Source of the DNA: Actinomycetota bacterium
GTDB lineage: Bacteria; Actinomycetota; Actinomycetes; Nanopelagicales; Nanopelagicaceae
Length of the DNA: 40,070 nt
Reading direction: 5' to 3'
Assembly (NCBI GenBank): GCA_041182705.1
Contig: JBEGNC010000118.1
Location: forward strand, 1 to 40,070
Each line of letters opens with the position of its first letter. The first letter of the stretch is position 1. This document shows, one piece after another, positions 8,863-24,094 of the stretch. A program made the translations under genes and the position numbers. Under the pieces are notes generated by a model that had not been told where the DNA came from, searched no databases, and saw nothing but the letters and a program-made list of their open reading frames with translations.

Positions 8863-10490
8863 TTTCAGCGGAGTTGCGTGAAGCGGTAATTTCTTGGATT
8901 GCAGATGATCCAGATCCAAAGACGCGCGCCCAACTCGAGTCGATGCTCGAAGGCGGCGATGAATCCGAGTTGAGATCTTGCTTCTCTGGTTTCCTCGAGT
9001 TTGGTACAGCAGGATTACGCGGTCCGTTAGGACCAGGGCCATCTCGAATGAATCGGGCGGTCGTATCCAAGACTGCGCTTGGGCTGGCTCGCTTTATGGC
9101 TAAATCTGGATTGAAATCCATCGTCATCGGCCGAGATGCCAGATATGGCTCGGAAGATTTCACCCGAGATACTGCTGAGATCATGAGTGGCGCCGGATTC
9201 GATGTATATGTGTTGCCTCGGCCATTGCCGACACCCGTCTTGGCCTTTGCCGTTCGAAAACTCAACTGCGATGTCGGCGTGATGGTCACCGCGAGCCACA
9301 ATCCACCGCAAGATAATGGTTACAAGGTCTATCTCGGTGGCACAGTCAATGGAACCATCTATAACGGTTCGCAAATAATCGCACCGACCGATAGCGAGAT
9401 CTCCCACGCAATCGCGACAGCGCCACAACTTCGAGATACCCCACGCGGCAATAGCTGGACCGTACTTCCGGAACAGGTGATTTCCGATTACATCGACGAG
9501 ACTGCAAAGCTCGCTCAACGCCCAGCGGAGATGAAGATCGTCTACACCGCCATGCATGGCGTTGGAAAAGAGGTCATAAGCAAGGTATTCGAACGCGCAG
9601 GTATGCCAAAGTTGATTCTTGTCAGCGAGCAAGCCGAGCCAGATCCAGATTTTCCAACTGTCGCCTTCCCAAATCCAGAGGAGCCCGGCGCAATAGACCT
9701 CGCCCTGGCTAAGGCGCGTGAGGTTGGTGCAGATCTGGTGATTGCCAATGATCCTGATGCGGATCGCTGTGCTGCTGCGATAAATGACAGTAAGACCGGT
9801 TGGCGAATGCTCCGTGGCGATGAAGTCGGCATCATCCTTGGTGAATATCTTGCAGTGAATGCTCCCGATAAAGTCGGAGTCTTCGCAAATTCCATTGTTT
9901 CATCCTCGGCACTTCGCAAGATTGCCGAGCACTACCAACTTCCGTTCACTGAGACGCTCACTGGATTCAAATATCTAGCTAAGGTGACGAATCTAAGATT
10001 CGGCTACGAAGAAGCGCTCGGATACTGCGTGGATGCCAAGATCGTAAACGATAAGGATGGGATCAGCGCTGCGCTGCTCTTGGCACAAATTGCTGCAGAT
10101 CTTAAAGAGGTGGGATCGAATTTCGAAAGTTTCCTAGATCAGATTTGGCAGCGGATTGGGTTTCATGCCACTCGACAGATCTCGGTAAGAACCCGAGATC
10201 TGTCGGATATAGAAAATGTCATGGGTCGGCTGCGAACGAATCGCCCGACTTCAATCGCCGGATTTGAAATCACTGGCTTCGATGACCTGGAACAACCAAG
10301 CGATGGATTGCCACCCACAAACGGGATTCGTCTCTGGCTCGCTGGGAAGTATCGCGTGATCGTTCGCCCCAGCGGAACGGAGCCGAAGATCAAGTGTTAC
10401 ATCGAGGTAGTCGAGCCAACCGCTGAAGCAGCTCTCCCCATCGTCGCGACTATCGAAAGCGCGTTTCGCACGATTCTGCAGGTAGCGTAA
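8859..10490 (+). CDS. phospho-sugar mutase (PmmB-like alpha-D-phosphohexomutase family; a phosphopentomutase role is likely from context)
   Basis: It has the catalytic serine loop GVMVTASHNPPQDNGYKVY and the N-terminal FGTAGLRG. The TTG start at 8859 is preceded by AGGAG and overlaps the upstream stop (TTGA). It lies directly upstream of deoC. Confidence 0.85.
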   Translation: MISAELREAVISWIADDPDPKTRAQLESMLEGGDESELRSCFSGFLEFGTAGLRGPLGPGPSRMNRAVVSKTALGLARFMAKSGLKSIVIGRDARYGSEDFTRDTAEIMSGAGFDVYVLPRPLPTPVLAFAVRKLNCDVGVMVTASHNPPQDNGYKVYLGGTVNGTIYNGSQIIAPTDSEISHAIATAPQLRDTPRGNSWTVLPEQVISDYIDETAKLAQRPAEMKIVYTAMHGVGKEVISKVFERAGMPKLILVSEQAEPDPDFPTVAFPNPEEPGAIDLALAKAREVGADLVIANDPDADRCAAAINDSKTGWRMLRGDEVGIILGEYLAVNAPDKVGVFANSIVSSSALRKIAEHYQLPFTETLTGFKYLAKVTNLRFGYEEALGYCVDAKIVNDKDGISAALLLAQIAADLKEVGSNFESFLDQIWQRIGFHATRQISVRTRDLSDIENVMGRLRTNRPTSIAGFEITGFDDLEQPSDGLPPTNGIRLWLAGKYRVIVRPSGTEPKIKCYIEVVEPTAEAALPIVATIESAFRTILQVA

Positions 10491-10494
10491 GGCC

Positions 10495-11436
10495 ATGAAA
10501 TCGCTGATTGATGGGAGCGAACAATCCCTCCGCGCTTTCCTTAATGAATTACCTGGGGTAGATAAGGTAGGCGCAGAAGCTCGCGCGGCGATGCTTGGAA
10601 CCAGAAGTATCAAGACTTCAAGTAAGGCGAAGGCGATCGATCTGGCAATCAGCATGGTCGACCTGACGACCCTAGAAGGCGCAGATACGCCCGGGAAAGT
10701 CCGATCCCTCTGCGCTAAAGCAGTTCGACCGGATCCACGAGATCCATCGGTCCCTCATGTCGGAGCGGTTTGTGTCTACAACGATATGGTCGATATTGCC
10801 CGAAGGACTCTGGATGAACTAGGTGGGCGGACCATTCCCGTTGCTGCGGTATCCACAGCATTCCCATCCGGTCGCGCCTCTATGAGTGTGAAGTTGCGTG
10901 ACACGAAGGATGCGATTGATGCTGGGGCTAGTGAGATAGATATGGTCATCGATCGCGGTGCATTCTTGTCGGGTCGAATCGGTGAAGTCTTCGAAGAGAT
11001 TCGCGAAATCAAATCGCTCTGTGGCAATCAAGCTCACCTTAAGGTGATTTTGGAGACTGGTGAACTTGCGACCTACGACAACGTCCGACGAGCCTCTTTC
11101 TTGGCGATGTTGGCGGGCGCAGATTTCATCAAGACCAGCACCGGCAAAGTCACGCCAGCTGCAACACCGCCGGTGGTTCTGATCATGCTTGAAGCCGTTC
11201 GAGATTTCCATCGCCTGACCGGCGAGCGGATTGGCGTGAAGCCAGCGGGTGGGATCAAAACCACCAAGGACGCGATAAAGCAATTGGTTCTGGTGAATGA
11301 GACAACTGGCCCAGAATGGCTCACTCCAAAACTATTCCGAATCGGAGCAAGTTCCCTACTAAATGACTTACTACTCCAACGTATGAAGTTAACGAGTGGT
11401 CGATATTCTGGAAGCAATTATGTTACGGTGGACTGA
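10495..11436 (+). CDS. deoC: deoxyribose-phosphate aldolase (long actinobacterial form)
   Basis: It has the Schiff-base lysine motif GADFIKTSTGKV and a size of 313 aa. Confidence 0.9.
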   Translation: MKSLIDGSEQSLRAFLNELPGVDKVGAEARAAMLGTRSIKTSSKAKAIDLAISMVDLTTLEGADTPGKVRSLCAKAVRPDPRDPSVPHVGAVCVYNDMVDIARRTLDELGGRTIPVAAVSTAFPSGRASMSVKLRDTKDAIDAGASEIDMVIDRGAFLSGRIGEVFEEIREIKSLCGNQAHLKVILETGELATYDNVRRASFLAMLAGADFIKTSTGKVTPAATPPVVLIMLEAVRDFHRLTGERIGVKPAGGIKTTKDAIKQLVLVNETTGPEWLTPKLFRIGASSLLNDLLLQRMKLTSGRYSGSNYVTVD

Positions 11437-11438
11437 AT

Positions 11439-12887
11439 ATGACCGCTGAGATCTTCGAATACGCACCGGCGCCGGAGTCGACGGCAATCGTCAATATCGC
11501 CGACACTTATGGTCTTTTCATAAATGGAAAATTCGTAGCGCCGCATTCAAAGACCCGATTCGCCACGATAAATCCCGCTACCGAAGCGACGCTGAGTCGA
11601 GTAGCTCAAGCTGACCAGGTTGATGTGGATAAGGCCGTCAAAGCTGCGCGGGCAGCCCACACCAAGGTCTGGTCGAAAACCAAACCAAAAGATCGTGCAA
11701 AGTACCTGTTCCGGATTGCTCGCCTGATACAGGAGCGGGCTCGCGAGTTTGCGGTATTGGAGAGCCTTGATAATGGGAAGCCGATTCGCGAGACACGTGA
11801 TGTGGATGTTCCGCTCGCAGCGGCCCACTTCTTCTATCACGCCGGCTGGGCAGATAAGTTGGAATATGCCGGAGTAGGTAATTCTCCAAAACCTCATGGC
11901 GTAGTCGCGCAGATAATCCCGTGGAACTTCCCGCTTCTGATGCTTGCTTGGAAAGTAGCTCCAGCGCTTGCTACTGGAAATACCGTTGTGTTGAAGCCAG
12001 CTGAGACGACGCCACTTACTGCTCTTTTATTCGCTGAGATCTGTGAACAAGCCGAACTCCCAGCCGGGGTCGTGAACATCATCACTGGAGATGGTCGGAC
12101 TGGTGCAGCATTAGTTGCGCATCCCGATATCGATAAGGTCGCATTCACCGGATCTACTGAGGTCGGCAAGTTGATCGCCAATTCACTGGCAGATCGAAAT
12201 GTTCCAGCGACCCTGGAACTTGGCGGTAAAGGTGCCAACATCGTCTTCGACGATGCGCCGCTGGATGAGGCGGTCGAAGGAATCATCAACGGCATATTCT
12301 TCAATCAAGGCCATGTTTGTTGTGCTGGTTCACGGCTATTGCTCCAGGAGAGTATCGTCGATGAATTCTTGGCGAGCCTTCAATCACGAATGGCAAAGAT
12401 CCGAGTTGGAGATCCACTTGATAAGAACACTGATCTAGGTGCAATCAACTCGAGCGCCCAACTCGCGAAGATAAAGGAGTTGAGCGAATCTGGCATCAAG
12501 GAGGGCGCTGAGATTTGGAGCGCGCCTTGCTCACTACCGCAAAAGGGATTCTGGTTTGCACCAACTATCTTCACTGGTGTCACGCAGGCCCATCGAATCG
12601 CGCGCGAAGAGATCTTCGGTCCAGTGCTATCAGTGTTGACCTTCCGTACTCCACAAGAGGCGATTGAGAAGGCGAATAACACTCCTTATGGACTTTCAGC
12701 AGGTATCTGGACCGATAAAGGTTCGCGAATCCTCTGGGCTGCAAATGAGTTGAAAGCCGGAGTCATCTGGGCGAATACCTTCAATAAATTCGATCCAGCT
12801 AGCCCATTTGGCGGCTACAAGGAATCTGGTTGGGGTCGCGAAGGTGGCCGACATGGCTTAGCCGCTTACCTGAAAGGTGGTGAGTGA
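11439..12887 (+). CDS. NAD(P)-dependent aldehyde dehydrogenase (probably acetaldehyde from DeoC)
   Basis: It has the ALDH motifs IIPWNFPL, FTGSTEVG, ELGGKG and the catalytic Cys context FFNQGHVCCAGSR. The size is 482 aa. Confidence 0.9.
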   Translation: MTAEIFEYAPAPESTAIVNIADTYGLFINGKFVAPHSKTRFATINPATEATLSRVAQADQVDVDKAVKAARAAHTKVWSKTKPKDRAKYLFRIARLIQERAREFAVLESLDNGKPIRETRDVDVPLAAAHFFYHAGWADKLEYAGVGNSPKPHGVVAQIIPWNFPLLMLAWKVAPALATGNTVVLKPAETTPLTALLFAEICEQAELPAGVVNIITGDGRTGAALVAHPDIDKVAFTGSTEVGKLIANSLADRNVPATLELGGKGANIVFDDAPLDEAVEGIINGIFFNQGHVCCAGSRLLLQESIVDEFLASLQSRMAKIRVGDPLDKNTDLGAINSSAQLAKIKELSESGIKEGAEIWSAPCSLPQKGFWFAPTIFTGVTQAHRIAREEIFGPVLSVLTFRTPQEAIEKANNTPYGLSAGIWTDKGSRILWAANELKAGVIWANTFNKFDPASPFGGYKESGWGREGGRHGLAAYLKGGE

Positions 12888-13726
12888 TGCGCCTTGATGT
12901 GATGAAGACCTACAAGCTATTCATCGGTGGTGCGTTCCCGCGGAGCGAATCTGGGCGCTCATACCAAGTTAAGGATAAGCGTGGTGAATTCATCGCAAAC
13001 CCAGCTTGGGCATCGCGGAAAGATCTACGTGACGCCGTAGTCGCCGCGAAAGGTTCTTTTTCTGGCTGGTCTCACGCGACTGCTTATAACCGAGGCCAGA
13101 TTCTCTATCGAATCGCTGAGATGATGGAGGGAAGAAGCGAACAGTTCATCGCCGAGATCATGGCGCTAGAAGGCGTGACTGAGAAGAATGCCCGAGCACA
13201 AGTATCGGAAGCGATCGACCTATGGGTCTGGTATGCCGGATGGACCGATAAGTTGTCTTCAATCTATGGCAGCACAAATCCAATCGCTGCTCCCTATTTC
13301 AACTTCACGATCCCAGAACCAATCGGAGTAGTCGGCATCATCTCCGAGGAGAAGGATTCGCTATTGGGATTAGTTCGTGCGTTGGCGCCGATCATCGCCA
13401 GCGGCAATAGCGCCGTTGTGATTTCTAGTGAAACTCGCCCACTTCCTGCAATGACCTTCGCTGAGGTACTTGCTACAAGTGATCTGCCAGCTGGTGTGGT
13501 CAATATCCTGACTGGCAAGAAAGCAGAACTTCTTCCTTGGCTCGCTTCGCACATGGATGTGGATGCACTCGATATCTCCGGTGCGAATCCAAAGTTGGAT
13601 GGTGAGTTACGCCGATTAGGAACCGAGAATCTGAAGCGGATCCATAGATTTAGTAAGAAGGATTCACCAAAACGGATTTTGAGCTACATGGAGTTGAAGA
13701 CGGTTTGGCACCCGATCGGAATCTAG
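12884..13726 (+). CDS. truncated aldehyde-dehydrogenase-like protein lacking the catalytic domain (280 aa)
   Basis: It aligns by eye to the N-terminal cofactor-binding half of the upstream ALDH (LPAGVVNILTG vs LPAGVVNIITG) and keeps a C-terminal tail (MELKTVW). It lacks PWNFP (it has SEEKDS), FTGST (it has ISGAN) and the whole Cys-containing catalytic domain. Its start overlaps the upstream stop (GTGATG). Confidence 0.7.
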   Translation: MMRLDVMKTYKLFIGGAFPRSESGRSYQVKDKRGEFIANPAWASRKDLRDAVVAAKGSFSGWSHATAYNRGQILYRIAEMMEGRSEQFIAEIMALEGVTEKNARAQVSEAIDLWVWYAGWTDKLSSIYGSTNPIAAPYFNFTIPEPIGVVGIISEEKDSLLGLVRALAPIIASGNSAVVISSETRPLPAMTFAEVLATSDLPAGVVNILTGKKAELLPWLASHMDVDALDISGANPKLDGELRRLGTENLKRIHRFSKKDSPKRILSYMELKTVWHPIGI

Positions 13727-15006
13727 CTGATTCGGGTAACAACCAGCGGTAATCGCTCTGCTAAAGAATCACCGATCTTCACCGCATCCTTCAAGGCTGC
13801 CTCGGCTCGTTCGAAACGATTCGGTTCATCGGTATGTAAGGTGAATAGCGGGTCTCCAGCTTTAATGGATTGACCTGGTTTGGCATGAATCTCGATTCCG
13901 GCACCAGCTTGCACCTGTTCACCTTGTCGTTCACGTCCGGCGCCCAATCGCCATGCCGCGATTCCTACGCTTAAGGCGTGCATCGAGGAGATGACGCCAG
14001 AATCGGTGGCGGAGATGATCTTCTCTTCGCGCGCTACCGGAAGTTTTCCATCTGGATCGCCACCCTGAGCGCGAACCATCCGCCGCCAATGATCCATCGC
14101 GCTTCCATCTTTTAGCGCGGTTTCGGGATCCTTGCCTTTGATCTGCGCAGCATCCAACATCTCGCGGGCGAGAATCAAAGTCAGTTCGACTACATCTGCG
14201 GGTCCGCCACCGGCAAGAACCTCGACTGATTCGCGAACCTCAAGAGCGTTACCTGCAGTTAGGCCGAGCGGAACATCCATCGCTGTTACTAAGGCGCGAG
14301 TGTTTACGCCAGCTCGCTTACCCAATGCCACCATCGTCTCGGCTAACTCCTTGGCCTGCTCAGGTTCCGACATGAATGCACCGTTACCGGTCTTCACATC
14401 GAGTATCAATGCGCTAGTTCCTTCTGCAATCTTCTTACTCATAATCGATGAAGCGATCAACGGAATTGATTGAACGGTAGCTGTCACATCACGGAGCGCA
14501 TATAGCTTCTTATCGGCCGGAGCCAGACCACTTCCCGCGGCACAAATTACGGCGCCACATTCTTGTAGAACTCTTAGCATTTCTTCATTTGATAGTGATG
14601 CCCGCCATCCTGGAATCGCTTCCATTTTGTCGAGGGTGCCTCCGGTATGACCCAAGCCGCGACCAGAGAGTTGTGGAACTGCAGCGCCACAAGCGGCAAC
14701 TAGCGGGGCCAATGGGAGCGTGATCTTGTCGCCGACTCCACCAGTGGAATGCTTATCAACAGTAGGTTTATTCAGCGCCTGCCAGGACATTCGCTCACCA
14801 CTTGCGATCATGGCATCGGTCCAACGTGAAATCTCTCGAGGATTCATCCCATTCAACAAGATTGCCATCAGCAATGCAGACATCTGTTCATCGGCGACTA
14901 CACCCCGTACATAAGCATCAATCACCCAATCAATCTGGGGATCGCTTAATTCAAATCGATCTCGTTTAGCAGAGATGATCTCAACAGCTGCAAACTTTTC
15001 AGCCAT
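13723..15006 (-). CDS. deoA: thymidine/pyrimidine-nucleoside phosphorylase
   Basis: It has the motifs KHSTGGVGDKITL and LSGRGLGHTGGTLDK. The size is 427 aa. Confidence 0.9.
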   Translation of the reverse strand: MAEKFAAVEIISAKRDRFELSDPQIDWVIDAYVRGVVADEQMSALLMAILLNGMNPREISRWTDAMIASGERMSWQALNKPTVDKHSTGGVGDKITLPLAPLVAACGAAVPQLSGRGLGHTGGTLDKMEAIPGWRASLSNEEMLRVLQECGAVICAAGSGLAPADKKLYALRDVTATVQSIPLIASSIMSKKIAEGTSALILDVKTGNGAFMSEPEQAKELAETMVALGKRAGVNTRALVTAMDVPLGLTAGNALEVRESVEVLAGGGPADVVELTLILAREMLDAAQIKGKDPETALKDGSAMDHWRRMVRAQGGDPDGKLPVAREEKIISATDSGVISSMHALSVGIAAWRLGAGRERQGEQVQAGAGIEIHAKPGQSIKAGDPLFTLHTDEPNRFERAEAALKDAVKIGDSLAERLPLVVTRIS

Positions 15007-15015
15007 GTGTTCGCC

Positions 15016-15408
15016 TCACTTGGATTTCTTCAGATCTTCTGGACCGAATCCCCAAGGCAGGATCTTCGACATCTTCATCGGCCCTTCGGGAGTTAGAAGT
15101 TCTAACTCACCTCCGCCATGCTCGAAGAGTAATTGGCGACATCTACCGCATGGTGAGAGCAGCGCACCATCTGCATCAACACAGACAACCGCTATTAGGC
15201 GTCCGCCACCCGTCATCGCCAAGCTTGAGACCATCGAACACTCCGCGCAGAGCGTCAATCCATAACTCGCGTTCTCCACATTGCAGCCACTGATCACACG
15301 ACCATCGTCTACCAAACCTGCAACCCCGACTGGGAATTTCGAATATGGTGCGTACGCAAACTTAGTGGCGCGCATCGCCTCTTCCTGCAACATCTTCCAG
15401 TCGATCAT
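15016..15408 (-). CDS. cdd: cytidine deaminase
   Basis: It has the zinc-ligand motifs CAECSMV and PCGRCRQ. I prefer the ATG at 15408 (130 aa). It is preceded by AGGAG in TAGGAGCGTCATG, where TAG is the stop of the upstream gene. The ORF-track start at 15447 would overlap that gene by 32 nt. Confidence 0.9.
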   Translation of the reverse strand: MIDWKMLQEEAMRATKFAYAPYSKFPVGVAGLVDDGRVISGCNVENASYGLTLCAECSMVSSLAMTGGGRLIAVVCVDADGALLSPCGRCRQLLFEHGGGELELLTPEGPMKMSKILPWGFGPEDLKKSK

Positions 15409-15415
15409 GACGCTC

Positions 15416-17383
15416 CTATCTTGGAAATCCTGCAGCAACGCCACCATCCACCGGTATTACAGCACCAGTCGTACGTGATGACTCATCTGAGAGCAGGAAC
15501 GCTACTGAGCGAGCGACATCAGATGAACGTACCCGCGCCTTGAGGATGTTTCGTTTGGCGTAGAAATCCTCGAGTTCCTCAGGTTTTACGCCATGCTCTT
15601 TCGCCCGCTGCTCTCGGATGCCACCCTCCCAGAGCTTGCTGTTGTCGAAGACCGCATCGGGATTTAGCGCATTGGCGCGCACACCAATCGCACCGCCTTC
15701 CAAAGCAGCAATCCGCATCAACTGGATCATTCCCGCCTTGGTCACGGAATATCCACCAAAGCCTGCGCCAGGTGCGAAGGCATTCTTACTTGCGATGTAG
15801 ACCAGTGAACCGCCCATTGCCTGGGTGCGCATAGCGCGCATCGCATACTTTGTTAAAAGGAATGAACTAGTCAGATTTATCTCGATGCCACGTCGCCATT
15901 GCTCCGGGGAAAGCTCTTCCAGAGTGCCAGGAACACCAATACCGGCGTTCAGTATGACGCCATCCAAGCCGCCGAAATTATCGATTGTCTTTGAAACCGT
16001 TTCCTGCACTACAGCTTCACTACTTTGATCGCCTTCGATAAGTAAAGGTTTGGCAAACTTTCCGGCAATAAATTCTGCTTCCGTTGCAGCTAGTCCCTTC
16101 GCATCTAAATCCGCCAATACCACATTCGCGCCGAGTGAGCCAAGGTGAAGCGCTATTCCGCGGCCAATGCCACTTCCGGCACCAGTAACGATAAAAATGT
16201 TTCCCGTAAGTGGCGGTGCCTTCGGTTTCAATTTCAACTTAAACAATTCCATCGGCCAATAATCAAAGCCAAATATCTCCGCATCCGGCAAGGTGCGCGG
16301 CTTAGGGAAACAATCGACGACAGTTGCGCCAACAGAGTGGGTATGGAATGCAATATCCGCCAGCATCTTGGTCTCACCGGTATTAGCGCCGGCGCCAATC
16401 ATGCCGACGCCAGGAGTTAGGAAGACTTTTGGATCATTGCCGTGGCTGGAATATCCCGGCGGCAAGAGCGACTTATTCGCCTCGAAGTACGAGTCGTATC
16501 GCGACCGGTAAGTATCAACAGCGTTCTCTAGATTCTCTGGAGTGAGCAGACAAGACCAAGGGCGGATACGAAGCATGTGATCAGCGCTGGCAGCACCAGC
16601 GGCAAGCACCTTCGGAAGATCTGTTCGATCTGCAATCTGGCGAAGTCTGGTGTCGACCCGGAGAACTTGCTTCTTACCGATCTTGCCGCGGAGCCGTAGT
16701 AGAAGTTCCCGGATCTCATCATCGCGCAGATCTTGATGTCGGAAATCCGCCTTCGGTGGCTCCTTTAAAGTAGCGAGGAACTTCTCGGCGGTTTCGACTG
16801 CCGCCAATGTCTTGCCGTAACACTTGTCGCTATCGTCATCCCAGACAATCAGTCCGTGATGGGCTAGCACCACGCCTTCATAATCCTTCAATTCACTTAC
16901 TAATTTTGAGAGTTCGAAACCTGGACGTAGCCATTCGACGAAGGCAAATCCCTCACCTAGGGCATCTTTCACCGCAGCTTGCGCGTCCTCATGGTTCGTC
17001 AGTGCACAGATCGCATCCGCATGGACGTGGTCTATATGTCGCGCCGGGAGAAAAGCATGAAGCAAGGTCTCGATAGATGGTCGGCGCGCGCTTGGATCGA
17101 CTAGTGCACGGGTAACGAAATCGACCATCGTGTCATCGTCTAGCTCGCCCTTGGCCTTCAGCGCAATCAGTTCTTCCAGATATAGAGCGGGATAGTCGAC
17201 TGCTTCGCCATACTGCATATCAGCGCCAGATCCCTTTACCCAAAGTACTTTTCGATTTCTTCCCAGGTAATCGGTGATCTCGCCCTTTGCAGAGGTATTT
17301 CCACCGCCATAAACGACGAGTGATTGATCTGCACCGATCAACTTAGAGCGTGCAACCAGTTTCGTAAGATCTGGATGGTTCAT
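15416..17383 (-). CDS. bifunctional class II aldolase / short-chain dehydrogenase (RhaD/YuxG/RhaEW-type fusion)
   Basis: The N-terminal half has class II aldolase/adducin motifs (GGGNTSAKG, HIDHVHAD, VLAHHGLIVW). The C-terminal half is a classical SDR (TGAGSGIGRGIA, NAGIG, YSVTKAG). Its ATG overlaps the mtnA stop (ATGA). Confidence 0.85.
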   Translation of the reverse strand: MNHPDLTKLVARSKLIGADQSLVVYGGGNTSAKGEITDYLGRNRKVLWVKGSGADMQYGEAVDYPALYLEELIALKAKGELDDDTMVDFVTRALVDPSARRPSIETLLHAFLPARHIDHVHADAICALTNHEDAQAAVKDALGEGFAFVEWLRPGFELSKLVSELKDYEGVVLAHHGLIVWDDDSDKCYGKTLAAVETAEKFLATLKEPPKADFRHQDLRDDEIRELLLRLRGKIGKKQVLRVDTRLRQIADRTDLPKVLAAGAASADHMLRIRPWSCLLTPENLENAVDTYRSRYDSYFEANKSLLPPGYSSHGNDPKVFLTPGVGMIGAGANTGETKMLADIAFHTHSVGATVVDCFPKPRTLPDAEIFGFDYWPMELFKLKLKPKAPPLTGNIFIVTGAGSGIGRGIALHLGSLGANVVLADLDAKGLAATEAEFIAGKFAKPLLIEGDQSSEAVVQETVSKTIDNFGGLDGVILNAGIGVPGTLEELSPEQWRRGIEINLTSSFLLTKYAMRAMRTQAMGGSLVYIASKNAFAPGAGFGGYSVTKAGMIQLMRIAALEGGAIGVRANALNPDAVFDNSKLWEGGIREQRAKEHGVKPEELEDFYAKRNILKARVRSSDVARSVAFLLSDESSRTTGAVIPVDGGVAAGFPR

Positions 17384-18399
17384 AATCTCTCTCCTTCACT
17401 TACTCGATAAACCTTCTTCTCAGTCACGACAGCAGTTATGTAACGTGCTGGTGTCACATCGAAGGCTGGGTTATATGTCCGAGAACCTTTTGGCGCGGTT
17501 GGAACGCCGGCGAATTCCGTCATCTCGCGATCATCGCGGAACTCAATCTCGATCTGACTGCCATCGGCAAGTGATCGATCTACCGTCGATTCTGGCGCAA
17601 CTACAAAGAATGGGACGCCAACTGCATGAGCTGCGACAGCCACCGCCAATGATCCGATCTTGTTCGCTGAATCGCCATTACGTGCAATCCGATCCGCGCC
17701 GATTGCCACAGCGTCGATTAGCCCCGCAAAGAGCGCACTTGCGGCTGCACCATCCGGAAGAATTCGATATGGAATTCCAATCTGAGCCAATTCCCATGCA
17801 GTCAGACGAGCGCCCTGGAGCAGTGGCCTGGTCTCATCAGCGAAAACCTCGCGAACCTTTCCGCGATCATTTAGTTCTTGGATCATTCCAAGAGCAGTTC
17901 CCCACTCGGTGGTCGCCAGCGCACCGGTATTGCAATGAGTAAGTATTGTGAAATCACCACTCTTGCCAGATTTAGCGAGGAGTTCAATTAGATGGTCTGC
18001 ACCAAGGGAACCCATTGCGCGATTGGCCCGACCATCTTCTGCAGCCATCTCGAGGGCGCGCTTTAACACCGCTGCCGCACCATCTTTGAGAAGCGGCCGT
18101 ACTTGATCGACTCCCCAAGCAAGATTCACCGCTGTCGGACGAGCAGTTCGCAACTCATCAACTGCTTTATCGATGCTTGCTGCGCTCCAGGAATCGCGCT
18201 CCGCATTCTTGGCGATCAAAGCTACGCCAAATGCGCCTGCGACACCGAGAGCTGGTGCGCCGCGAATCGCCAAACGCTTTATGGCATCTATTAATTGGAG
18301 ATGGTCATCAATCACCAATTCGACAGTTTCCAATGGCAGCCGCGTCTGGTCGAGCAGGTGGATCTGGCCATCTGCTTCGCTCCAACTTATGGTGCGCAC
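17380..18399 (-). CDS. mtnA: S-methyl-5-thioribose-1-phosphate isomerase (eIF-2B alpha/beta/delta-like family)
   Basis: It has the N-terminal IHLLDQTRLP and the GADRIARNGDSANKIGS motif. It has a GTG start at 18399 and a size of 339 aa. Confidence 0.85.
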   Translation of the reverse strand: MRTISWSEADGQIHLLDQTRLPLETVELVIDDHLQLIDAIKRLAIRGAPALGVAGAFGVALIAKNAERDSWSAASIDKAVDELRTARPTAVNLAWGVDQVRPLLKDGAAAVLKRALEMAAEDGRANRAMGSLGADHLIELLAKSGKSGDFTILTHCNTGALATTEWGTALGMIQELNDRGKVREVFADETRPLLQGARLTAWELAQIGIPYRILPDGAAASALFAGLIDAVAIGADRIARNGDSANKIGSLAVAVAAHAVGVPFFVVAPESTVDRSLADGSQIEIEFRDDREMTEFAGVPTAPKGSRTYNPAFDVTPARYITAVVTEKKVYRVSEGERL

Positions 18400-18451
18400 C
18401 TGCCTAGCCTAAACCCAACCTTTACCCTTGCTTCACCTGGGCTGGAGCGTA

Positions 18452-18480
18452 ATTACCTCTCATTCGTTACCTTCTTGTAA
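18452..18480 (-). promoter_or_regulatory. candidate sigma70-type promoter for the mtnA operon
   Basis: The minus strand reads TTACAA-17 nt-GGTAAT about 50 nt upstream of the mtnA GTG. This rests on the sequence pattern only. Confidence 0.25.
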
Positions 18481-18602
18481 TAGAAGCCACGCAAGCCATC
18501 GCCGCAGGCGGCTAATAATTGAAATCGCGCTTGGATAGGATTTCGGACGTCTCCAACGCGTTCCCCGCGTATTTCTTGATAAGGATTTACTCTCGTTGGG
18601 AG

Positions 18603-18618
18603 ATAATCGATCGATTAT
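18603..18618. promoter_or_regulatory. perfect 16-bp palindrome ATAATCGATCGATTAT, a candidate operator
   Basis: I verified base by base that it equals its own reverse complement. It overlaps a -10-like GATAAT (18602-18607) and lies 44 nt upstream of the BMP transporter ATG, in the only long intergenic region. Confidence 0.45.
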
Positions 18619-18620
18619 TG

Positions 18621-18643: not shown

Positions 18644-18661
18644 TCACTTGAGAGGAGTTAC

Positions 18662-19708
18662 ATGTTCAAGCGTATTGCGACTATCGTCGCAGCGTTAAGC
18701 ATTTCACTATTCGGTCTCGTTGGCTGCAGCAGCAGCGATGAGAATGCGGCAATCACAGAAGCTGATTGCGGCACCGAAGGTGCATTCTGTATCGGCCTAG
18801 TAACCGACACTGGCAAGGTTGATGACAAGTCATTCAACCAGTCTGCTTGGGAAGGTGCTGTAGCTGGCGCAGAGACAGTTGGTGGTTTCGCGAAGTACAT
18901 TGAGACCATTGATCCAAAAGATTATGCAACCAACATCGGACAGTTTGCCGAAAATGGTTACAACGTGATCATCGGTGTCGGCTTCTTGATGGCTGAAGCG
19001 ATGACTACCGCAGCAAATCAATATCCAGATATCAAGTTCATCGGTGTCGACCAGTTCCAAGGAACTGCGCTACCGAACTTGACTGGCCTTGTGTTCCCAG
19101 AAGATAAGGCTGGCTTCCTTGCTGGCTATCTCGCTGGCCACCTAACAACTTCTGGAAAGACTGGCGCCGTTCTCGGCACCGAAGTCGTTCCACCAGTCCG
19201 TTACTTCGGCGAAGGCTTCCGCAATGGCGTTGCCTACGCAGCTCAGGAAATGGGCAAGAGCTATCCAGAGACTCGTCTCGTCTATCACGCACCAGATAAC
19301 GCATTCAATGACCCAGCATGGGGCGCAGCCACTGCAAAGCAGTTGCTCTCCCAGGGTTATGACGTCATCTTCGGTGCTGGTGGAAATACCGGTAACGGCG
19401 CGCTCCTCGAGATCGCTAAGACCCCAGGTGCATATTGCATCGGTGTCGACGCTGATCAATGGGGAACACTGCCTGAAGCACAACCTTGCCTCGTAACTTC
19501 AGCGATGAAGTTGATCGACAAGGGCGTTGCAGCTCTAATCGAGCAGGCATCTGATGGATCAATCGCTGGCGGAAACTTCTTTGGTGAAGTCGGCCTTGCT
19601 CCTTACCATGACTTCGATTCCAAGCTCGCTCAGGACATCAAGGACAAGGTGGCTGCTCTAACGCCACAGGTCATCGATGGAACTGTTGCAACTGGAGTTA
19701 AGTTGTAA
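18662..19708 (+). CDS. BMP family (PnrA-like) ABC transporter substrate-binding lipoprotein, probably nucleoside-binding
   Basis: It has a lipobox (LFGLVGCSS) and the BMP motif DDKSFNQSAWEG. The size is 348 aa. Confidence 0.85.
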   Translation: MFKRIATIVAALSISLFGLVGCSSSDENAAITEADCGTEGAFCIGLVTDTGKVDDKSFNQSAWEGAVAGAETVGGFAKYIETIDPKDYATNIGQFAENGYNVIIGVGFLMAEAMTTAANQYPDIKFIGVDQFQGTALPNLTGLVFPEDKAGFLAGYLAGHLTTSGKTGAVLGTEVVPPVRYFGEGFRNGVAYAAQEMGKSYPETRLVYHAPDNAFNDPAWGAATAKQLLSQGYDVIFGAGGNTGNGALLEIAKTPGAYCIGVDADQWGTLPEAQPCLVTSAMKLIDKGVAALIEQASDGSIAGGNFFGEVGLAPYHDFDSKLAQDIKDKVAALTPQVIDGTVATGVKL

Positions 19709-19724
19709 GAGTCCTGTGACTCTA

Positions 19725-19758
19725 GAAGAGGGGAGGCGCGTGTGCGTCTCCCCTCTTC
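19725..19758 (+). other. stable stem-loop between the SBP and permease genes (possible partial terminator or mRNA-stabilising hairpin)
   Basis: GAAGAGGGGAG (19725-19735) pairs perfectly with CTCCCCTCTTC (19748-19758), and further partial pairing is possible in the 12-nt loop. No U-tract follows, so it is not a canonical intrinsic terminator. Confidence 0.5.
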
Positions 19759-19789
19759 AAATTAACCAGCAAAAGAGGAAGAATCAGGG

Positions 19790-20854
19790 TTGATGAAGAT
19801 ATCGGTAAGTAACAAGCAACTTCAGGCAATCTCCGTGCCATTACTTTCGATTGCCATTGCCCTCTTCTTCGGTGGGATCATGATTGCGCTTCAAGGAATC
19901 AACCCGCTGTATGCATATCAAGTTCTATTCATAAAAGCCTTTGGTTCCATCGAGGGAATCGCGACAACTTTGGCAAAGGCCACGCCATTGGTATTAAGCG
20001 GCCTTGCTGTCGCAGTTTGTCTGCGCGCTGGCCTGTTCAACATCGGTGCCCAAGGTCAGTTGATATCTGGCGCACTCGCCTCAGCTTGGGCCGGTTATTA
20101 CTTCGTCGGTCTGCCTAGCTTGGTACATATTCCATTAGCGTTACTTTTTGGCGCAGTCTTCGGTGCTCTTGTTGCACTCGTTGCTGGCGCACTCAAGGCT
20201 TATCGTGGCGTACATGAAGTGATCACAACCATCATGCTCAATAGCATCGTGATCGCACTTGCCGACTATCTAGCAAGCACGCCATTCAAGGAGCCAGATC
20301 AGCCTCTTACTCGCACTCCAGCGATCCAGGATTCCGCGCGCATCCCAGATATCTTCGGATTACCGCTTGGTTTCTTCATGGCAGTAGGACTTTCGGTTGC
20401 GCTCTGGTGGTTGATTATGAATACGACCACAGGTTTCCGTATCGAGACCATCGGAAGGAATCGGAATGCTGGTTGGTATGCCGGTATTTCAGTTAAGCGC
20501 GTGATCTTGATCAGCATGCTATTTGGCGGATCAATCGCTGGACTTGCTGGCGCTATCGAGACTCTTAGTATCACTGGAAGATTCGAGCCAGCATTCAATG
20601 CTGGTTTGGGTTTCGACGGGATCACCGTCGCCCTACTAGGAAGAGCTAATCCTTTAGGCGTTATCCCAGCAGCAATCTTGATCGGTGGAATGCGCGGCGC
20701 CGCTTCAACTATGCAATTCCGCGCGGGCGTAGCACCTGAGATTGTCGATTTGCTTCTTGCATTGATTCTATTCTTCGTTACGGCGCCGCTATTGATGCGT
20801 CTTTTGAAGAAGAAGCAAGAGGGTATCTCCCTTTCGAGCGGATGGAGTAACTAA
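19790..20854 (+). CDS. ABC transporter permease (BMP/simple-sugar type)
   Basis: It is a multi-TM protein of 354 aa. The start is TTG 19790 or ATG 19793, after AGAGGA. Confidence 0.85.
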   Translation: MMKISVSNKQLQAISVPLLSIAIALFFGGIMIALQGINPLYAYQVLFIKAFGSIEGIATTLAKATPLVLSGLAVAVCLRAGLFNIGAQGQLISGALASAWAGYYFVGLPSLVHIPLALLFGAVFGALVALVAGALKAYRGVHEVITTIMLNSIVIALADYLASTPFKEPDQPLTRTPAIQDSARIPDIFGLPLGFFMAVGLSVALWWLIMNTTTGFRIETIGRNRNAGWYAGISVKRVILISMLFGGSIAGLAGAIETLSITGRFEPAFNAGLGFDGITVALLGRANPLGVIPAAILIGGMRGAASTMQFRAGVAPEIVDLLLALILFFVTAPLLMRLLKKKQEGISLSSGWSN

Positions 20855-21834
20855 TGAAGATTCGGCTTGGTTACCTATCTGCGATTCCACTGCTTGTGGC
20901 TTTTGTCTACTTCTATCAAGTAAATTCGATGATCACGACCTCGGTGCTATTCACAGCAATCCCATTTGCGCTACCACTTGCGCTTGCGGCGATGGTCGGT
21001 GTGATGTGCGAGCGGACCGGAATCGTGAATATTGGTATCGAAGGGACTATGTTGGTCTCGGCCTTCACTGCTTTCTTCATCGGCGCCATCGTCAAGGACA
21101 CTGTGATCGGTTTAGCGGTCGGCATTGTGACCGGCGCGTTAGTTGGGCTCTTGCTATCGCTTATGACGATCTCCTGGAAGATGGATCAGATCATCGCGGG
21201 CGTGATCATCAATATCATGGCTGCAGGAATAACTTCATTCCTTTACAAGCAGAATTATTCGATCCCAGGGACTCTGCCACCGATTGACCTACCGATCATT
21301 GGTGACTTGCCGGTGCTGGGGCCGATCTTGTCCAAGCATGGTCCGATCACCTATTTCGGAATCGTCTTCATCATCGGTCTCTGGGTAGGCCTCTACAAGA
21401 CGCCGTGGGGCCTTCGCTCTCGATCAGTCGGCGAACATCCATCGAGCGCAGATACTGCAGGTGTCTCGGTGATTCGCCTCCGCTACATCAATGTGACGAT
21501 TGCTGGCGCTGTAGGTGGACTTGCTGGAAGTTATCTCGCTTTGGAAGCGGTTGGAATATTCGAGCGCGGTTTCACTGCAGGAAAGGGCTTCACGGCCCTT
21601 GCAATCATGATCTTTGGAAGATGGAATCCGATGGGCGCATTCGCAGCAGCGCTCTTCTTCGGCCTTGCGCAAGCCGTTACAAATCAATTGATGATCGATG
21701 AGATCGTCAAGATCCCACAGCAATTCATCAATATGTTGCCATATGTTCTGACCATCTTGATCCTTGCAATCTCAGCAGGCAAAGTTCGGCCGCCAGCAGC
21801 CGAAGGAATCCCATATGAGAAGGAGAAGGTATGA
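20854..21834 (+). CDS. ABC transporter permease (BMP/simple-sugar type)
   Basis: It is a multi-TM protein of 326 aa. Its start overlaps the upstream stop by 1 nt. Confidence 0.85.
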   Translation: MKIRLGYLSAIPLLVAFVYFYQVNSMITTSVLFTAIPFALPLALAAMVGVMCERTGIVNIGIEGTMLVSAFTAFFIGAIVKDTVIGLAVGIVTGALVGLLLSLMTISWKMDQIIAGVIINIMAAGITSFLYKQNYSIPGTLPPIDLPIIGDLPVLGPILSKHGPITYFGIVFIIGLWVGLYKTPWGLRSRSVGEHPSSADTAGVSVIRLRYINVTIAGAVGGLAGSYLALEAVGIFERGFTAGKGFTALAIMIFGRWNPMGAFAAALFFGLAQAVTNQLMIDEIVKIPQQFINMLPYVLTILILAISAGKVRPPAAEGIPYEKEKV

Positions 21835-23339
21835 CAAATCTCCTTGACGTCAGAAATATCAGCAAAGCCTTCGGGTCGGTTCAGGCCAACTCAGATATCT
21901 CGTTATCGGTAGCTCCAGGCGAGATTGTTGCGCTACTTGGCGAGAATGGCGCAGGTAAGTCGACGCTGGTCAAGGCGGTCTTTGGATTAGTTCGCCCAGA
22001 TTCTGGAACGATTGCAATCAAAGGTGAACAACTAACACCGGGCGATACCGCAGGTGCGATTGCGCGTGGCGTCGGTATGGTGCACCAGCATTTCCAATTG
22101 GTCCCAGTCATGACCGTTACCGAGAATTTGATATTGGGCGATGAACCAAAGAGATTCGGCTTCCTGCAGATGAATCGTGCTCGTAAAGAAGCCCAAGAAC
22201 TCTCTGAGCGATATGGCTTAGAAGTAGATCCAGATGCATTGATTGAGGATCTTCCAGTTGGTATGGCGCAGCGTGTCGAGATTCTAAAGGCGCTACGCCG
22301 TGATGTTAGCTTGTTGATTCTAGATGAGCCGACTGCGGTACTTACCCCGCAAGAGACCGATGAACTTCTCGCCGTGCTACGGAATCTTGCTAAGAAGGGC
22401 GTGGGCATACTCTTCATCACCCATAAATTGCGCGAAGTGATGGCGATCGCAGATCGCGTCGTCGTTCTGCGAAATGGAAAGTTAGTCGGCACGACTTCAC
22501 CAAAAGAGAGTAGTGAAGCCCAATTAGCCCAGATGATGGTCGGCCGAGCAGTGGTCTTGGAAGTAGAGAAAGGACCGGCAAAACCTAAGGATCCAGCGCT
22601 GGTTGTCGACGGAATCAAAGTGCTCGACGATCGCAAATTAGAAGCGGTTAAGGGGCTATCGCTCTCCGTAAAGTCCGGTGAGATCCTCGGCATCGCAGGT
22701 GTCGAAGGTAATGGCCAGCGAGAATTAGTCGAGGCAATCTGTGGGATGCGTTCTCGAATCGAAGGAACCGTATCGATAAATGGAAATCCATTACCCAATC
22801 TCAATCCGAAAGCCGCCCATGAGGCTGGAGTTTCGCATATACCTGAGGATCGCGAGAAGCATGGCTTGGTATCAAGTTACTCAATCTCGGATAACTTGAT
22901 CTTGAACTGTTTCGACCAAGAACCATATGCACATGGCTGGGTCAGAGATCACGCCGCTGTTGCTGCCAATGGCGCTGCACTGGTTAAGGAATTCGATATC
23001 CGAACTCCCAGTCCGGATCTACCAGCCGGTTCTCTCTCTGGCGGGAACAAGCAAAAAGTCGTTGTAGCGCGTGAACTTAGTCAGGATCTCAGTGTTGTCG
23101 TTGCAGCCCAACCAACACGCGGCGTCGATGTCGGATCTATTGAATTCATCCATAATCAATTGATTGCTGCGCGCGATAATGGAGCTGCGGTCCTCTTGGT
23201 TTCCGCTGAATTGGATGAAGTACTTTCGCTATCCGACCGAATCTCGGTTATCTATGCCGGGAAGATCGTCGCTACCTTCGATTCTGAAGGTGCGGATCGA
23301 GCGAAGATCGGACGGATGATGGCTGGGTTAACTGATTAA
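21831..23339 (+). CDS. ABC transporter ATP-binding protein with two fused ABC domains
   Basis: It has Walker A GENGAGKST, a second P-loop GVEGNGQRE, the signature LSGGNKQK and a Walker B ILDEPT. It has a 4-nt overlap with the upstream permease. Confidence 0.9.
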   Translation: MTNLLDVRNISKAFGSVQANSDISLSVAPGEIVALLGENGAGKSTLVKAVFGLVRPDSGTIAIKGEQLTPGDTAGAIARGVGMVHQHFQLVPVMTVTENLILGDEPKRFGFLQMNRARKEAQELSERYGLEVDPDALIEDLPVGMAQRVEILKALRRDVSLLILDEPTAVLTPQETDELLAVLRNLAKKGVGILFITHKLREVMAIADRVVVLRNGKLVGTTSPKESSEAQLAQMMVGRAVVLEVEKGPAKPKDPALVVDGIKVLDDRKLEAVKGLSLSVKSGEILGIAGVEGNGQRELVEAICGMRSRIEGTVSINGNPLPNLNPKAAHEAGVSHIPEDREKHGLVSSYSISDNLILNCFDQEPYAHGWVRDHAAVAANGAALVKEFDIRTPSPDLPAGSLSGGNKQKVVVARELSQDLSVVVAAQPTRGVDVGSIEFIHNQLIAARDNGAAVLLVSAELDEVLSLSDRISVIYAGKIVATFDSEGADRAKIGRMMAGLTD

Positions 23340-23341: not shown

Positions 23342-24094
23342 ATGGCTAAGTTGGCCTTGATCGCAGGTACCGGTTTCTATGACCTACCTAATCTAACCGA
23401 CCGTAATGAACGGCTCGTCGATACCAAATATGGGCAAGCTAAAGTCATTGAAGGAAGATTGGGCGATATCGAACTGGTCTTCCTGACCCGCCATGGCAGC
23501 GGCCACACCATCCCGCCTCATATGATCAATTATCGAGCCAATATCAAGGCTTTACAGGACCTCGGCGTCTCATCGGTAATAGCGGTAAATGTGGTCGGTG
23601 GCGTAGATCCCACTTTGAAACCTGGTGACTTAACTTTGATCGATGACTTCATCGATTACACATCAGGGCGGATCAATACATTCTTTGATGGTGGTGACGA
23701 GTTTGGCGTCCAGCATATCGACATGACAAATGTATACGACAAGAAAATCCAAGCAGCTCTTCTGGCAAGCGCAACCTCACTTGGAATTAGCTTGCGAACC
23801 GGTGCTGTTTATGCCGGATTTAATGGGCCGCGTTTCGAGACCCCGGCAGAGATTCGGATGGTGGCTCAGGCGGGTGGAACCGTAGTTGGGATGACTGGTT
23901 GTCCGGAAGCAGCGCTCGCACGCGAGATTGCGCTGCCTTATGCAGCAATTGCGCTTATCGTGAATCCCGCTGCCGGCTTAAGCGAGGAAGAGATAACCAT
24001 GGAGGAAATTAATCGCGCATTGGATGCAGGACGGAATAAGGTACTTGCTATCTTGGCTGATGCAGTCTCGCGGATTGCGAAAGCAAGTGAGTGA
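23342..24094 (+). CDS. mtnP: S-methyl-5'-thioadenosine (or 5'-methylthioinosine) phosphorylase, MTAP family
   Basis: It has LTRHGSGHTIPPHMINYRANIKAL and GPRFETPAEIRM typical of MTAP-family phosphorylases. The size is 250 aa. Confidence 0.8.
   Translation: MAKLALIAGTGFYDLPNLTDRNERLVDTKYGQAKVIEGRLGDIELVFLTRHGSGHTIPPHMINYRANIKALQDLGVSSVIAVNVVGGVDPTLKPGDLTLIDDFIDYTSGRINTFFDGGDEFGVQHIDMTNVYDKKIQAALLASATSLGISLRTGAVYAGFNGPRFETPAEIRMVAQAGGTVVGMTGCPEAALAREIALPYAAIALIVNPAAGLSEEEITMEEINRALDAGRNKVLAILADAVSRIAKASE

Follow-up and report, generated by a model that had tools for sequence, protein, structure and literature searches.

An mtnA-coupled aldolase-dehydrogenase fusion in freshwater Actinomycetota suggests a variant of the dihydroxyacetone phosphate shunt

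What does an enzyme built like a rhamnose-degrading fusion do beside a methionine-salvage isomerase? We address this question for a 40,070-nucleotide (nt) stretch of Nanopelagicaceae DNA (contig JBEGNC010000118.1; hereafter the window, in which all open reading frames (ORFs) of at least 120 aa were scanned). Here mtnA, the gene for S-methyl-5-thioribose-1-phosphate isomerase, is translationally coupled to a gene for a 655-aa class II aldolase joined to a short-chain dehydrogenase/reductase (SDR). Every cell must dispose of 5'-methylthioadenosine (MTA) as well as 5'-deoxyadenosine, and the Nanopelagicales, which include genome-streamlined members, are dominant lake bacterioplankton. We propose, with a probability of roughly 0.65, that the gene pair encodes a variant of the dihydroxyacetone phosphate (DHAP) shunt for 5-blocked pentoses derived from S-adenosylmethionine chemistry. 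In the known shunt, a phosphorylase or kinase, MtnA and a class II aldolase act in turn to release DHAP and an aldehyde (PMC5893883, PMC10986504).

Results

mtnA and the fusion gene head a four-gene operon

17380..18399, minus strand: mtnA, S-methyl-5-thioribose-1-phosphate isomerase, 339 aa, GTG start (TIGR00512, NF004326)
15416-17383, minus strand: class II aldolase and SDR fusion, 655 aa (Pfam domains and motifs)
16769..17383, minus strand: fusion residues 1-205, RhaE-type class II (metal-dependent) aldolase domain (PF00596, E 4.5e-16)
16214..16768, minus strand: fusion residues 206-390, helical middle or linker domain, the least conserved
15416..16213, minus strand: fusion residues 391-655 and stop, classical SDR domain (PF13561/PF00106)
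15016..15408, minus strand: cdd, cytidine deaminase (NF004064, 176.6 against a cut-off of 74)
13723..15006, minus strand: deoA/pdp, thymidine (pyrimidine-nucleoside) phosphorylase, last gene of the operon (NF004490, 630 against 269; TIGR02644, 551 against 409)

The four genes mtnA, fusion, cdd and deoA are tightly packed across 13723-18399. The mtnA stop overlaps the fusion start in an ATGA at 17380-17383, as the preliminary description of this DNA had reported, and its assignment of cdd and deoA to the same operon is borne out by the spacings. The fusion stop TAG (15416-15418) lies within the AGGAG ribosome-binding site preceding cdd, and the likely cdd start is the ATG at 15408, 7 nt past that stop; the NF004064 alignment, which begins at residue 15 of the longest cdd ORF, fits this start. 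The deoA start follows 9 nt beyond the cdd stop.

Judged by curated models, the window isomerase is a genuine MtnA. It passes the equivalog models TIGR00512 (376 bits, cut-off 279) and NF004326 (378, cut-off 271), fails the ribose-1,5-bisphosphate isomerase model TIGR00511 (147, cut-off 314) and carries the MtnA motif GADRIARNGDSANKIG at residue 234. Isomerases from relatives pass TIGR00512 as well.

All five motifs attributed earlier to the fusion are present: GGGNTS, HIDHVH and AHHG in the aldolase domain (starting at residues 26, 116 and 174), and TGAGSGIG and YSVTK in the SDR domain (400 and 545). Mapped onto residues, the aldolase features are the GGGNTS loop at 26-31, E105, H109, H116/H119/H121 and H175/H176, and those of the SDR are TGAGSGIG at 400-407, D425 and S532-Y545-K549. 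NAD-preferring SDRs typically have an acidic residue at the position equivalent to D425. The putative metal-ligand histidines (H116/H119/H121, H175/H176), E105, the GGGNTS loop and the SDR Ser-Tyr-Lys are invariant across the clade of relatives described below.

An AlphaFold (AF2) model of the fusion reached a predicted local distance difference test score (pLDDT) of 86 and a predicted template-modelling (TM) score of 0.86, with the middle domain mostly at pLDDT 70-96. The structure closest to the aldolase half is an uncharacterized Thermoplasma domain, 3m4r (E 4e-36), to which Foldseek aligned the modelled domain at a TM-score of 0.89; the SDR domain scored 0.85-0.89 against NAD(H)-dependent SDRs. 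The PDB holds no full-length structure of this fusion type.

The fusion lies outside the curated rhamnose family

With its RhaE-type aldolase and C-terminal SDR in one 655-aa chain, the protein has the architecture of RhaEW, the L-rhamnulose-1-phosphate aldolase/L-lactaldehyde dehydrogenase. JGI and source annotations name such proteins 'rhamnulose-1-phosphate aldolase/alcohol dehydrogenase', and the fusion aligns full-length to TIGR02632 (E 7e-154). By its scores, however, it falls outside the curated rhamnose family: 513.8 is below the TIGR02632 cut-off of 567.75, and all ten PRK08324 models are also below cut-off (best NF006190, 527.7 against 1014). The aldolase half alone matched, within NCBIfam, only these PRK08324/TIGR02632 fused-family models. 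Among 259 plasmid-borne homologues, the best reached 35% identity.

As RhaEW references we used three of these homologues with annotated rhamnose context (L084-L086).

Deinococcus locus: rhaI, fusion, rhamnulokinase, lactate utilisation genes
Rhizobium leguminosarum locus: rhaS transporter, fusion, rhaI
Prescottella equi locus: rhaI, fusion, rhamnulokinase, rhamnosidase

When 71 relatives were aligned with these references, the window clade was only 31-39% identical to the rhamnose-locus proteins (25-26% in the middle domain and 36-40% in the two catalytic domains), and most of the invariant aldolase-domain residues were invariant in the references too. The phylogeny, a check named in the preliminary description, did set the mtnA-linked clade apart: it is at least 51% identical internally and monophyletic on a long branch, a limited test because the outgroup comprised only three proteins, all defined by context.

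Gene context points the same way. Rodionova et al. reported that true RhaEW genes are always located in rha loci (PMC3870299), as they are in L084-L086. The preliminary description saw no rhamnose genes in the window, and we likewise found no rhamnose isomerase, kinase, mutarotase or transporter there, either among the scanned ORFs or by tblastn. Searching with the references' RhaI, RhaB, RhaM and RhaS, we found no rhaI, rhaB or clear rhaS in the window or in 1.05 Mb from 80 related loci. The sole matches in the relatives were one rhaM-like gene (L041) and two rhamnose-binding-protein matches at 24% identity (L038, L058).

The mtnA-fusion pair is conserved while its surroundings change

Protein searches returned thousands of relatives, nearly all from freshwater metagenomes. 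Those with names belong to Nanopelagicaceae, Planktophila, acTH1 and unclassified Actinomycetota (metagenome-assembled genomes (MAGs) and isolates, Nanopelagicales-like). A scan of species-representative genomes yielded the set of 80 loci, with fusions of 54-85% identity to that of the window. Of the 66 loci with at least 1.1 kb of upstream DNA available, 64 had mtnA as the immediate upstream neighbour on the same strand. This neighbourhood count, also proposed in the preliminary description, puts the pairing far beyond chance. The two genes mostly overlap or nearly abut, and the pair holds down to 51% identity while the surroundings change; the window clade, Nanopelagicaceae and a high-GC clade all have the 4-nt overlap.

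The two loci without mtnA, L029 and L042, are sisters in the tree. In both, the fusion gene faces a PfkB sugar kinase followed by Dak1/Dak2 (L042, 7165-9848), a ketose-1-phosphate/DHAP setting, which points to a second and distinct recruitment of these enzymes, again to a ketose-1-phosphate. A more distant member, P0221, has no informative neighbour.

The record titles of several freshwater MAGs with members of the clade read Bifidobacterium breve, Bifidobacterium sp., Bifidobacteriaceae bacterium, Clavibacter sp. or Rubrivirga sp. (L008, L011, L020, L028, L038, L049, L057, L067, L068, L070, L074, L079, L080, L081). These names look unreliable, because the loci are syntenic with Nanopelagicales-type genomes.

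Partner genes point to MTA and 5'-deoxyadenosine metabolism

The preliminary description overlooked two genes of the operon that diverges from mtnA, an MTA/5'-methylthioinosine (MTI) phosphorylase gene and one for an amidohydrolase resembling MTA deaminases. The genes that bear on the pair on either side of its operon are as follows.

18662..23339, plus strand: Bmp/PnrA-type nucleoside ABC transporter, comprising a binding protein, two permeases and a double ATPase (PF02608, PF02653 twice, PF00005 twice)
23342..24094, plus strand: MTA/MTI phosphorylase-family enzyme, 250 aa (NF006599, 272 against 223)
24087..25394, plus strand: MTA/5'-deoxyadenosine-deaminase-like amidohydrolase (PF01979; best PDB match 4f0r, an MTA/S-adenosylhomocysteine (SAH) deaminase, E 4.9e-71)
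8859..13726, plus strand: PGM-type phosphosugar mutase, DeoC, aldehyde dehydrogenase (ALDH) and a half-size ALDH-like protein (Pfam; DeoC TIGR00126, 169 against 117)

The phosphorylase passes the S-methyl-5'-thioinosine phosphorylase model NF006599 and has its best PDB match in 3ozb (E 5.5e-60). That entry was deposited under the name 'methylthioadenosine phosphorylase', and we take it to be the methylthioinosine phosphorylase of Pseudomonas aeruginosa. The window enzyme is the predicted source of 5-methylthioribose-1-phosphate (MTR-1-P) or 5-deoxyribose-1-phosphate. The amidohydrolase probably starts at the GTG at 24087, which overlaps the phosphorylase stop and fits the homologues, among them a 431-aa one in L088, better than position 24024, where the longest ORF begins.

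A tblastn census of the 80 loci showed which genes accompany the pair elsewhere. Judged by family, the varying partners all belong to MTA/5'-deoxyadenosine metabolism. In 19 loci, including the window clade, the context is of nucleoside/MTAP type, with phosphorylase, deaminase, cdd, deoA and Bmp transporter. These genes are co-directional with the pair in L072, L075, L077 and L080, and the phosphorylase shares the pair's operon in L072, L075, L077 and L088.

Another 41 loci have a context of a RuBisCO-like protein (RLP) and/or a split transketolase; none of them has a nucleoside gene, and no locus combines both contexts. The 366-aa RLP is present in 40 and each transketolase half in 16. The best curated matches of the RLP are MtnW models, at scores below cut-off. 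Its best solved relative is the 378-aa 3qfw, matched full-length (E 4e-64), with MtnW structures at 1e-41 to 1e-40. The split enzyme, transketolase/DXS-like and of about 301 and 337 aa, is linked to both pair and RLP, and the linkage survives inversions and insertions, with or without mtnK. The genes run in one direction in L001 and L065 and convergently in L059, L064 and L081. The combination of pair, split transketolase and RLP is seen in Nanopelagicaceae and acTH1 loci, for example in L001 (11981-14997) and likewise in L015-L017, L038, L049, L051, L058, L059, L064, L065, L067, L071 and L081. We know of no pathway joining an RLP to a transketolase downstream of MtnA. Nine of the RLP/transketolase loci also encode MtnK, at equivalog level (TIGR01767, 391 against 275); in loci of the acTH1 type, a sugar ABC transporter and a divergent GntR regulator precede it.

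Three loci carry canonical methionine-salvage genes, mtnC, mtnB and ARD-family mtnD, directly after the pair. L075 comes from the 80-locus set, and L087 and L088 from a second protein search.

L087, 12309-14274: mtnC-mtnB-mtnD
L088, 11978-13940: mtnC-mtnB-mtnD
L075, 12105-14031: mtnC-mtnB-mtnD

MtnC (TIGR01691, 220 against 128) and MtnB (TIGR03328, 153 against 137) pass their models. After these genes come cdd, phosphorylase, amidohydrolase, Cupin_5, SDR and the Bmp ABC transporter. L087 and L088 share the window's flanking TrpRS and CNNM genes, so the window locus is a rearranged homologue of a methionine-salvage/nucleoside supercluster, lacking mtnB, mtnC and mtnD. Neither the ORF scan nor tblastn with the relatives' proteins found MtnB, MtnC or MtnD in the window, in line with the earlier observation. 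The automatic gene call for L087 had overlooked mtnB and fused mtnC with antisense sequence.

A proposed DHAP-shunt variant for 5-blocked pentoses

What the comparison shows is which families or equivalogs the genes belong to, that the pair is conserved as a coupled unit, which partners it has, and that rhamnose genes are absent from the loci searched. Which substrates are used, that they undergo aldol cleavage, and in which direction and with which cofactor the SDR works are inferences. MTA and/or 5'-deoxyadenosine, made in the cell or imported by the Bmp nucleoside transporter, would be deaminated by the amidohydrolase, and the MTI/MTA-phosphorylase-family enzyme would then release MTR-1-P or 5-deoxyribose-1-phosphate; in some relatives, MtnK could make the same 1-phosphates from the free sugar. 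MtnA would isomerize these pentose-1-phosphates to the ribulose-1-phosphates, and the RhaE-type domain would cleave the latter into DHAP and 2-(methylthio)acetaldehyde or acetaldehyde. Finally, the fused SDR would remove the reactive aldehyde by NAD+-dependent oxidation to 2-(methylthio)acetate or acetate. This agrees with the central suggestion of the preliminary description, that the aldolase was recruited to MtnA products and the SDR disposes of the aldehyde, a suggestion supported by the conserved pair, its partners, the lack of rhamnose context and RhaEW model scores that stay below cut-off.

The direction proposed for the last step follows the rhamnose enzyme. In validated RhaEW, the SDR oxidizes L-lactaldehyde to lactate with NAD+, is inactive with NADH, and no DHAP forms without NAD+ (PMC3870299). 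The SDR step here is probably an NAD+-dependent oxidation as in RhaW.

Why a second route for pentose-1-phosphates should be needed is suggested by the neighbouring operon. The mutase, DeoC and ALDH genes stay next to deoA in related loci and are the predicted exit for ordinary (deoxy)ribose-1-phosphate, the mutase substrate being predicted likewise. As the 5-blocked sugars have no 5-OH, they cannot take this phosphopentomutase/DeoC route; only they would need MtnA and the aldolase.

The three loci with canonical salvage genes refine the proposal. According to the preliminary description, a canonical MtnB/C/D pathway that accounts for MtnA would refute its reading; such genes are found in L075, L087 and L088, and are absent from the window and from the homologous locus of its closest relatives. 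Since MtnB, MtnC and MtnD coexist with the pair in those three loci, the fusion there must be a side branch, acting most simply on 5-deoxyribulose-1-phosphate in a DrdA-like role. Beaudoin et al. described drdA genes inside salvage clusters (PMC6079011). In the window lineage, whose homologous locus has no mtnB, mtnC or mtnD, the fusion may take both substrates. The coexistence of RLP and pair in Nanopelagicaceae is intelligible from Rhodopseudomonas palustris, in which RLP and Ald2 branches run in parallel from the MtnA product 5-methylthioribulose-1-phosphate (MTRu-1-P) (PMC5893883).

Several observations weigh against the DHAP-shunt reading. One is stereochemistry: 5-deoxy- and 5-methylthio-D-ribulose-1-phosphate are 3R,4R, the configuration handled by FucA and DrdA (PMC6079011), and characterized RhaE domains cleave the 3R,4S L-rhamnulose-1-phosphate, so a changed C4 preference must be assumed. 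Judged by its matches, the aldolase is not an Ald2/DrdA orthologue, FucA in the PDB reaching only E 0.17 against it. Thirty positions are fixed in the mtnA-linked clade and uniformly different from the three RhaEW references, several of them flanking the HxH motif (V24, L112, I117, A122, C126, T129, A141); to recognize a specificity switch among them would take a RhaE structure with bound substrate. The window phosphorylase is just under the MTAP model TIGR01694 (257 against 275), and the NCBIfam matches of the amidohydrolase (TRZ/ATZ, 5'-deoxyadenosine deaminase, MTA/SAH deaminase) are all below cut-off. The tree was rooted on context-defined RhaEW proteins, not on the validated enzymes of B. 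subtilis and C. aurantiacus. Lastly, the pair's own operon includes cdd and deoA, whose sugar product is ordinary (deoxy)ribose-1-phosphate.

A broader scheme is conceivable and, in our view, speculative and rather unlikely. Nanopelagicales MtnA, fusion, MtnK, short RLP and split transketolase/DXS-like enzyme might form one undescribed module, with several branches, that handles 5-methylthio- and 5-deoxy-pentoses. What the RLP makes (1-methylthio- or 1-deoxy-xylulose-5-phosphate) would then pass to the transketolase-like enzyme in place of the cupin methylsulfurylase of Rhodospirillum rubrum, and 2-(methylthio)acetate from the fusion would be a new fate for MTA sulfur. The window lineage would have kept the aldolase branch only, after losing mtnB, mtnC and mtnD.

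Alternative readings

The alternative that survives best, to which we give a small chance, follows from the presence of cdd and deoA in the pair's operon. In it, ordinary ribose-1-phosphate, set free from pyrimidine and purine nucleosides by DeoA and a phosphorylase resembling purine nucleoside phosphorylase, is converted by the MtnA-like isomerase to D-ribulose-1-phosphate, which the fusion turns into DHAP and glycolaldehyde and then glycolate, a bacterial counterpart of the haloarchaeal ribulose-1-phosphate aldolase step. D-ribulose-1-phosphate shares the 3R,4R core of the 5-deoxy substrates, a ribulose-1-phosphate aldolase family exists (NF053831), methionine-salvage enzymes have been reported to be promiscuous towards ribose (review PMC6302742), and the pair shares an operon with cdd and deoA, divergent from a nucleoside ABC transporter, both in the window and in its clade. 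However, a mutase, DeoC and ALDH predicted to serve (deoxy)ribose-1-phosphate lie in the same locus, and the 41 RLP and/or split-transketolase loci carry the pair without nucleoside genes. The presence of MtnK, of MtnB/C/D and of the MTI phosphorylase with its MTA-deaminase-like partner links the isomerase to 5-methylthio and 5-deoxy sugars, and the aldolase domain has no NF053831 match at E 1e-6.

We consider it quite improbable that the fusion serves a larger pathway with RLP and split transketolase, acting on another ketose phosphate or on an aldehyde that they release instead of on the MtnA product itself. The persistence of RLP (40 loci) and transketolase halves (16 loci) beside the pair through rearrangement speaks for such a pathway. 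Yet in two clades, that of the window and the high-GC one, no RLP or transketolase is within reach of the pair, the constantly adjacent and translationally coupled gene is mtnA, and the parallel RLP and aldolase branches of R. palustris already offer a precedent (PMC5893883).

Very improbable is an N-terminal domain that acts on MTRu-1-P without cleaving it, as an MtnB-like dehydratase or another class II aldolase-fold enzyme. MtnB does have this fold, and an RLP with MtnW models as its best curated matches lies downstream in many loci. Against this, the domain has no TIGR03328 match at E 1e-6, its local BLASTP alignment with a bona fide MtnB (167 columns) shows only 23% identity, and the nearest solved relative of the RLP is 3qfw, not an MtnW structure. 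The separate, equivalog-level MtnB beside the pair in L075, L087 and L088, together with MtnC and MtnD, rules out the fusion as the dehydratase of the classical pathway there. An ordinary RhaEW that simply lies beside mtnA is barely credible, as model cut-offs, sequence identity and gene context in the loci searched all speak against a true rhamnose enzyme.

We also discarded an archaeal-type ribose-1,5-bisphosphate pathway (AMP phosphorylase, ribose-1,5-bisphosphate isomerase, RuBisCO), given the failure of TIGR00511 and a deoA that is a bacterial thymidine phosphorylase by NF004490.

Comparison with known systems

The DHAP-shunt reading places the locus closest to the shunt of R. rubrum, R. 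palustris and extraintestinal E. coli (MtnP or MtnN/MtnK, MtnA, Ald2), with which it shares a class II aldolase beside mtnA and would share the making of a pentose-1-phosphate by phosphorylase or kinase, its isomerization by MtnA and an aldehyde needing detoxification. It differs in that the aldolase is RhaE-type rather than an Ald2/FucA-type orthologue and carries a dehydrogenase in the same chain; a deaminase and an MTI-phosphorylase-like enzyme provide the predicted entry; and the predicted end point is oxidation to an acid, whereas in the known shunt a separate alcohol dehydrogenase reduces the aldehyde to 2-(methylthio)ethanol or ethanol.

5-Deoxyribose salvage by DrdK-DrdI-DrdA in Bacillus thuringiensis (PMC6079011) likewise has in one cluster a kinase (an MtnK paralogue), an isomerase (an MtnA paralogue) and a class II aldolase, and yields DHAP and acetaldehyde. 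drdA-like genes also sometimes lie inside methionine-salvage clusters, as the fusion does in L075, L087 and L088. DrdA, however, is a stand-alone, Mn-dependent, FucA-like enzyme, whereas the window aldolase belongs to another subfamily and carries an SDR, and a single MtnA here appears to serve both salvage and shunt.

RhaEW/YuxG has the same full-length three-part architecture and catalytic residues (PMC3870299), and the coupling of cleavage to NAD+-dependent oxidation is probably shared. The partner is mtnA rather than rhaI/rhaB, no member of the clade was found in a rha locus, and the predicted substrate has the opposite C4 configuration.

The entry steps recall another route, MTA deaminase followed by 5'-methylthioinosine phosphorylase, which is that of Pseudomonas aeruginosa. 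The window similarly has a match to an MTI-phosphorylase model and an MTA/SAH-deaminase-like amidohydrolase. Its genes differ in being co-operonic with a nucleoside ABC transporter, and their products may prefer MTA, 5'-deoxyadenosine or ordinary purine nucleosides. The archaeal pentose-bisphosphate pathway is unlike the locus, which passes neither TIGR00511 nor NF053831.

To our knowledge, the aldolase route has so far been tied to FucA-like Ald2/DrdA and unlinked alcohol dehydrogenases. The literature searched, with incomplete coverage, contained no description of an MtnA-linked RhaEW-like fusion or of such a module in Nanopelagicales. The proposed DHAP-shunt-type pathway with a non-orthologous, dehydrogenase-fused aldolase thus appears to be an undescribed variant; it is widespread in abundant freshwater Actinomycetota and annotated there as a rhamnose enzyme or generic SDR. 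If confirmed, it would mean that a rhamnose-family enzyme has displaced the DHAP-shunt aldolase non-orthologously, with built-in aldehyde removal and acids rather than alcohols as end products. The annotations 'rhamnulose-1-phosphate aldolase/alcohol dehydrogenase' and 'SDR family oxidoreductase' would then be systematically wrong for thousands of sequences from freshwater actinobacteria. What becomes of sulfur and carbon from S-adenosylmethionine by-products in Nanopelagicales, whether recycled or discarded, matters for the nutrients on which these bacteria depend and for the fluxes of organic sulfur and acetate in lakes. Loci with and without mtnB, mtnC and mtnD offer a natural experiment in the replacement of oxygen-dependent methionine salvage by the shunt.

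The divergent promoter region

mtnA and the Bmp transporter operon diverge across a 262-nt spacer (18400-18661), which contains the following element.

18605..18616, no strand: perfect palindrome AATCGATCGATT, candidate shared operator (from the intergenic alignment; function predicted)

The palindrome occurs once in the window and is fully conserved in 13 of 14 aligned sequences, L076 differing by one base. As a candidate operator, it would couple the mtnA-fusion-cdd-deoA operon with that of the transporter, phosphorylase and deaminase. Two further blocks of the spacer, GAATCCTATCC and GGTTTAGGCT, are conserved across the window's clade and are candidate promoter elements. Scans for consensus sigma-70 promoters and terminators gave nothing above shuffled sequences, no regulator gene was identified in the window, and an Rfam scan for riboswitches returned only an msiK RNA elsewhere in it. 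RLP-type relatives carry a divergent GntR/UTRA regulator instead.

Other features of the window

25391..26504, plus strand: Cupin_5 protein (DUF985, 140 aa) and a 232-aa SDR, at the end of the phosphorylase-deaminase operon

The Cupin_5-SDR order recurs in 10-12 related loci and in L088, where the operon also contains mtnB-mtnD. These two genes always trail the phosphorylase-deaminase pair, even beside full methionine-salvage genes. The PDB matches of the Cupin_5 protein are uncharacterized proteins; a relation to the cupin methylsulfurylase of R. rubrum and R. palustris, an enzyme of the MTA-isoprenoid shunt, would be speculative.

In the mutase-DeoC-ALDH operon, the 280-aa protein at 12884-13726 corresponds to the N-terminal half of ALDH only (Pfam Aldedh 12-215 of 461), and its gene overlaps the stop of the full-length ALDH gene. 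It is kept whole-length at 55-72% identity in nine related loci and is therefore not a recent pseudogene; a tenth match (L007) ends at a contig edge.

A second Bmp-family binding protein (319 aa) is encoded at 26488-27447 on the minus strand, beside TrpRS and away from any permease genes, and covers only the first half of the Pfam model. The msiK RNA motif lies at 29853-29912 (Rfam RF01747, 61.6 bits, gathering threshold 33), directly 5' of a gene for an MsiK/MalK-like ABC ATPase at 29914-30996.

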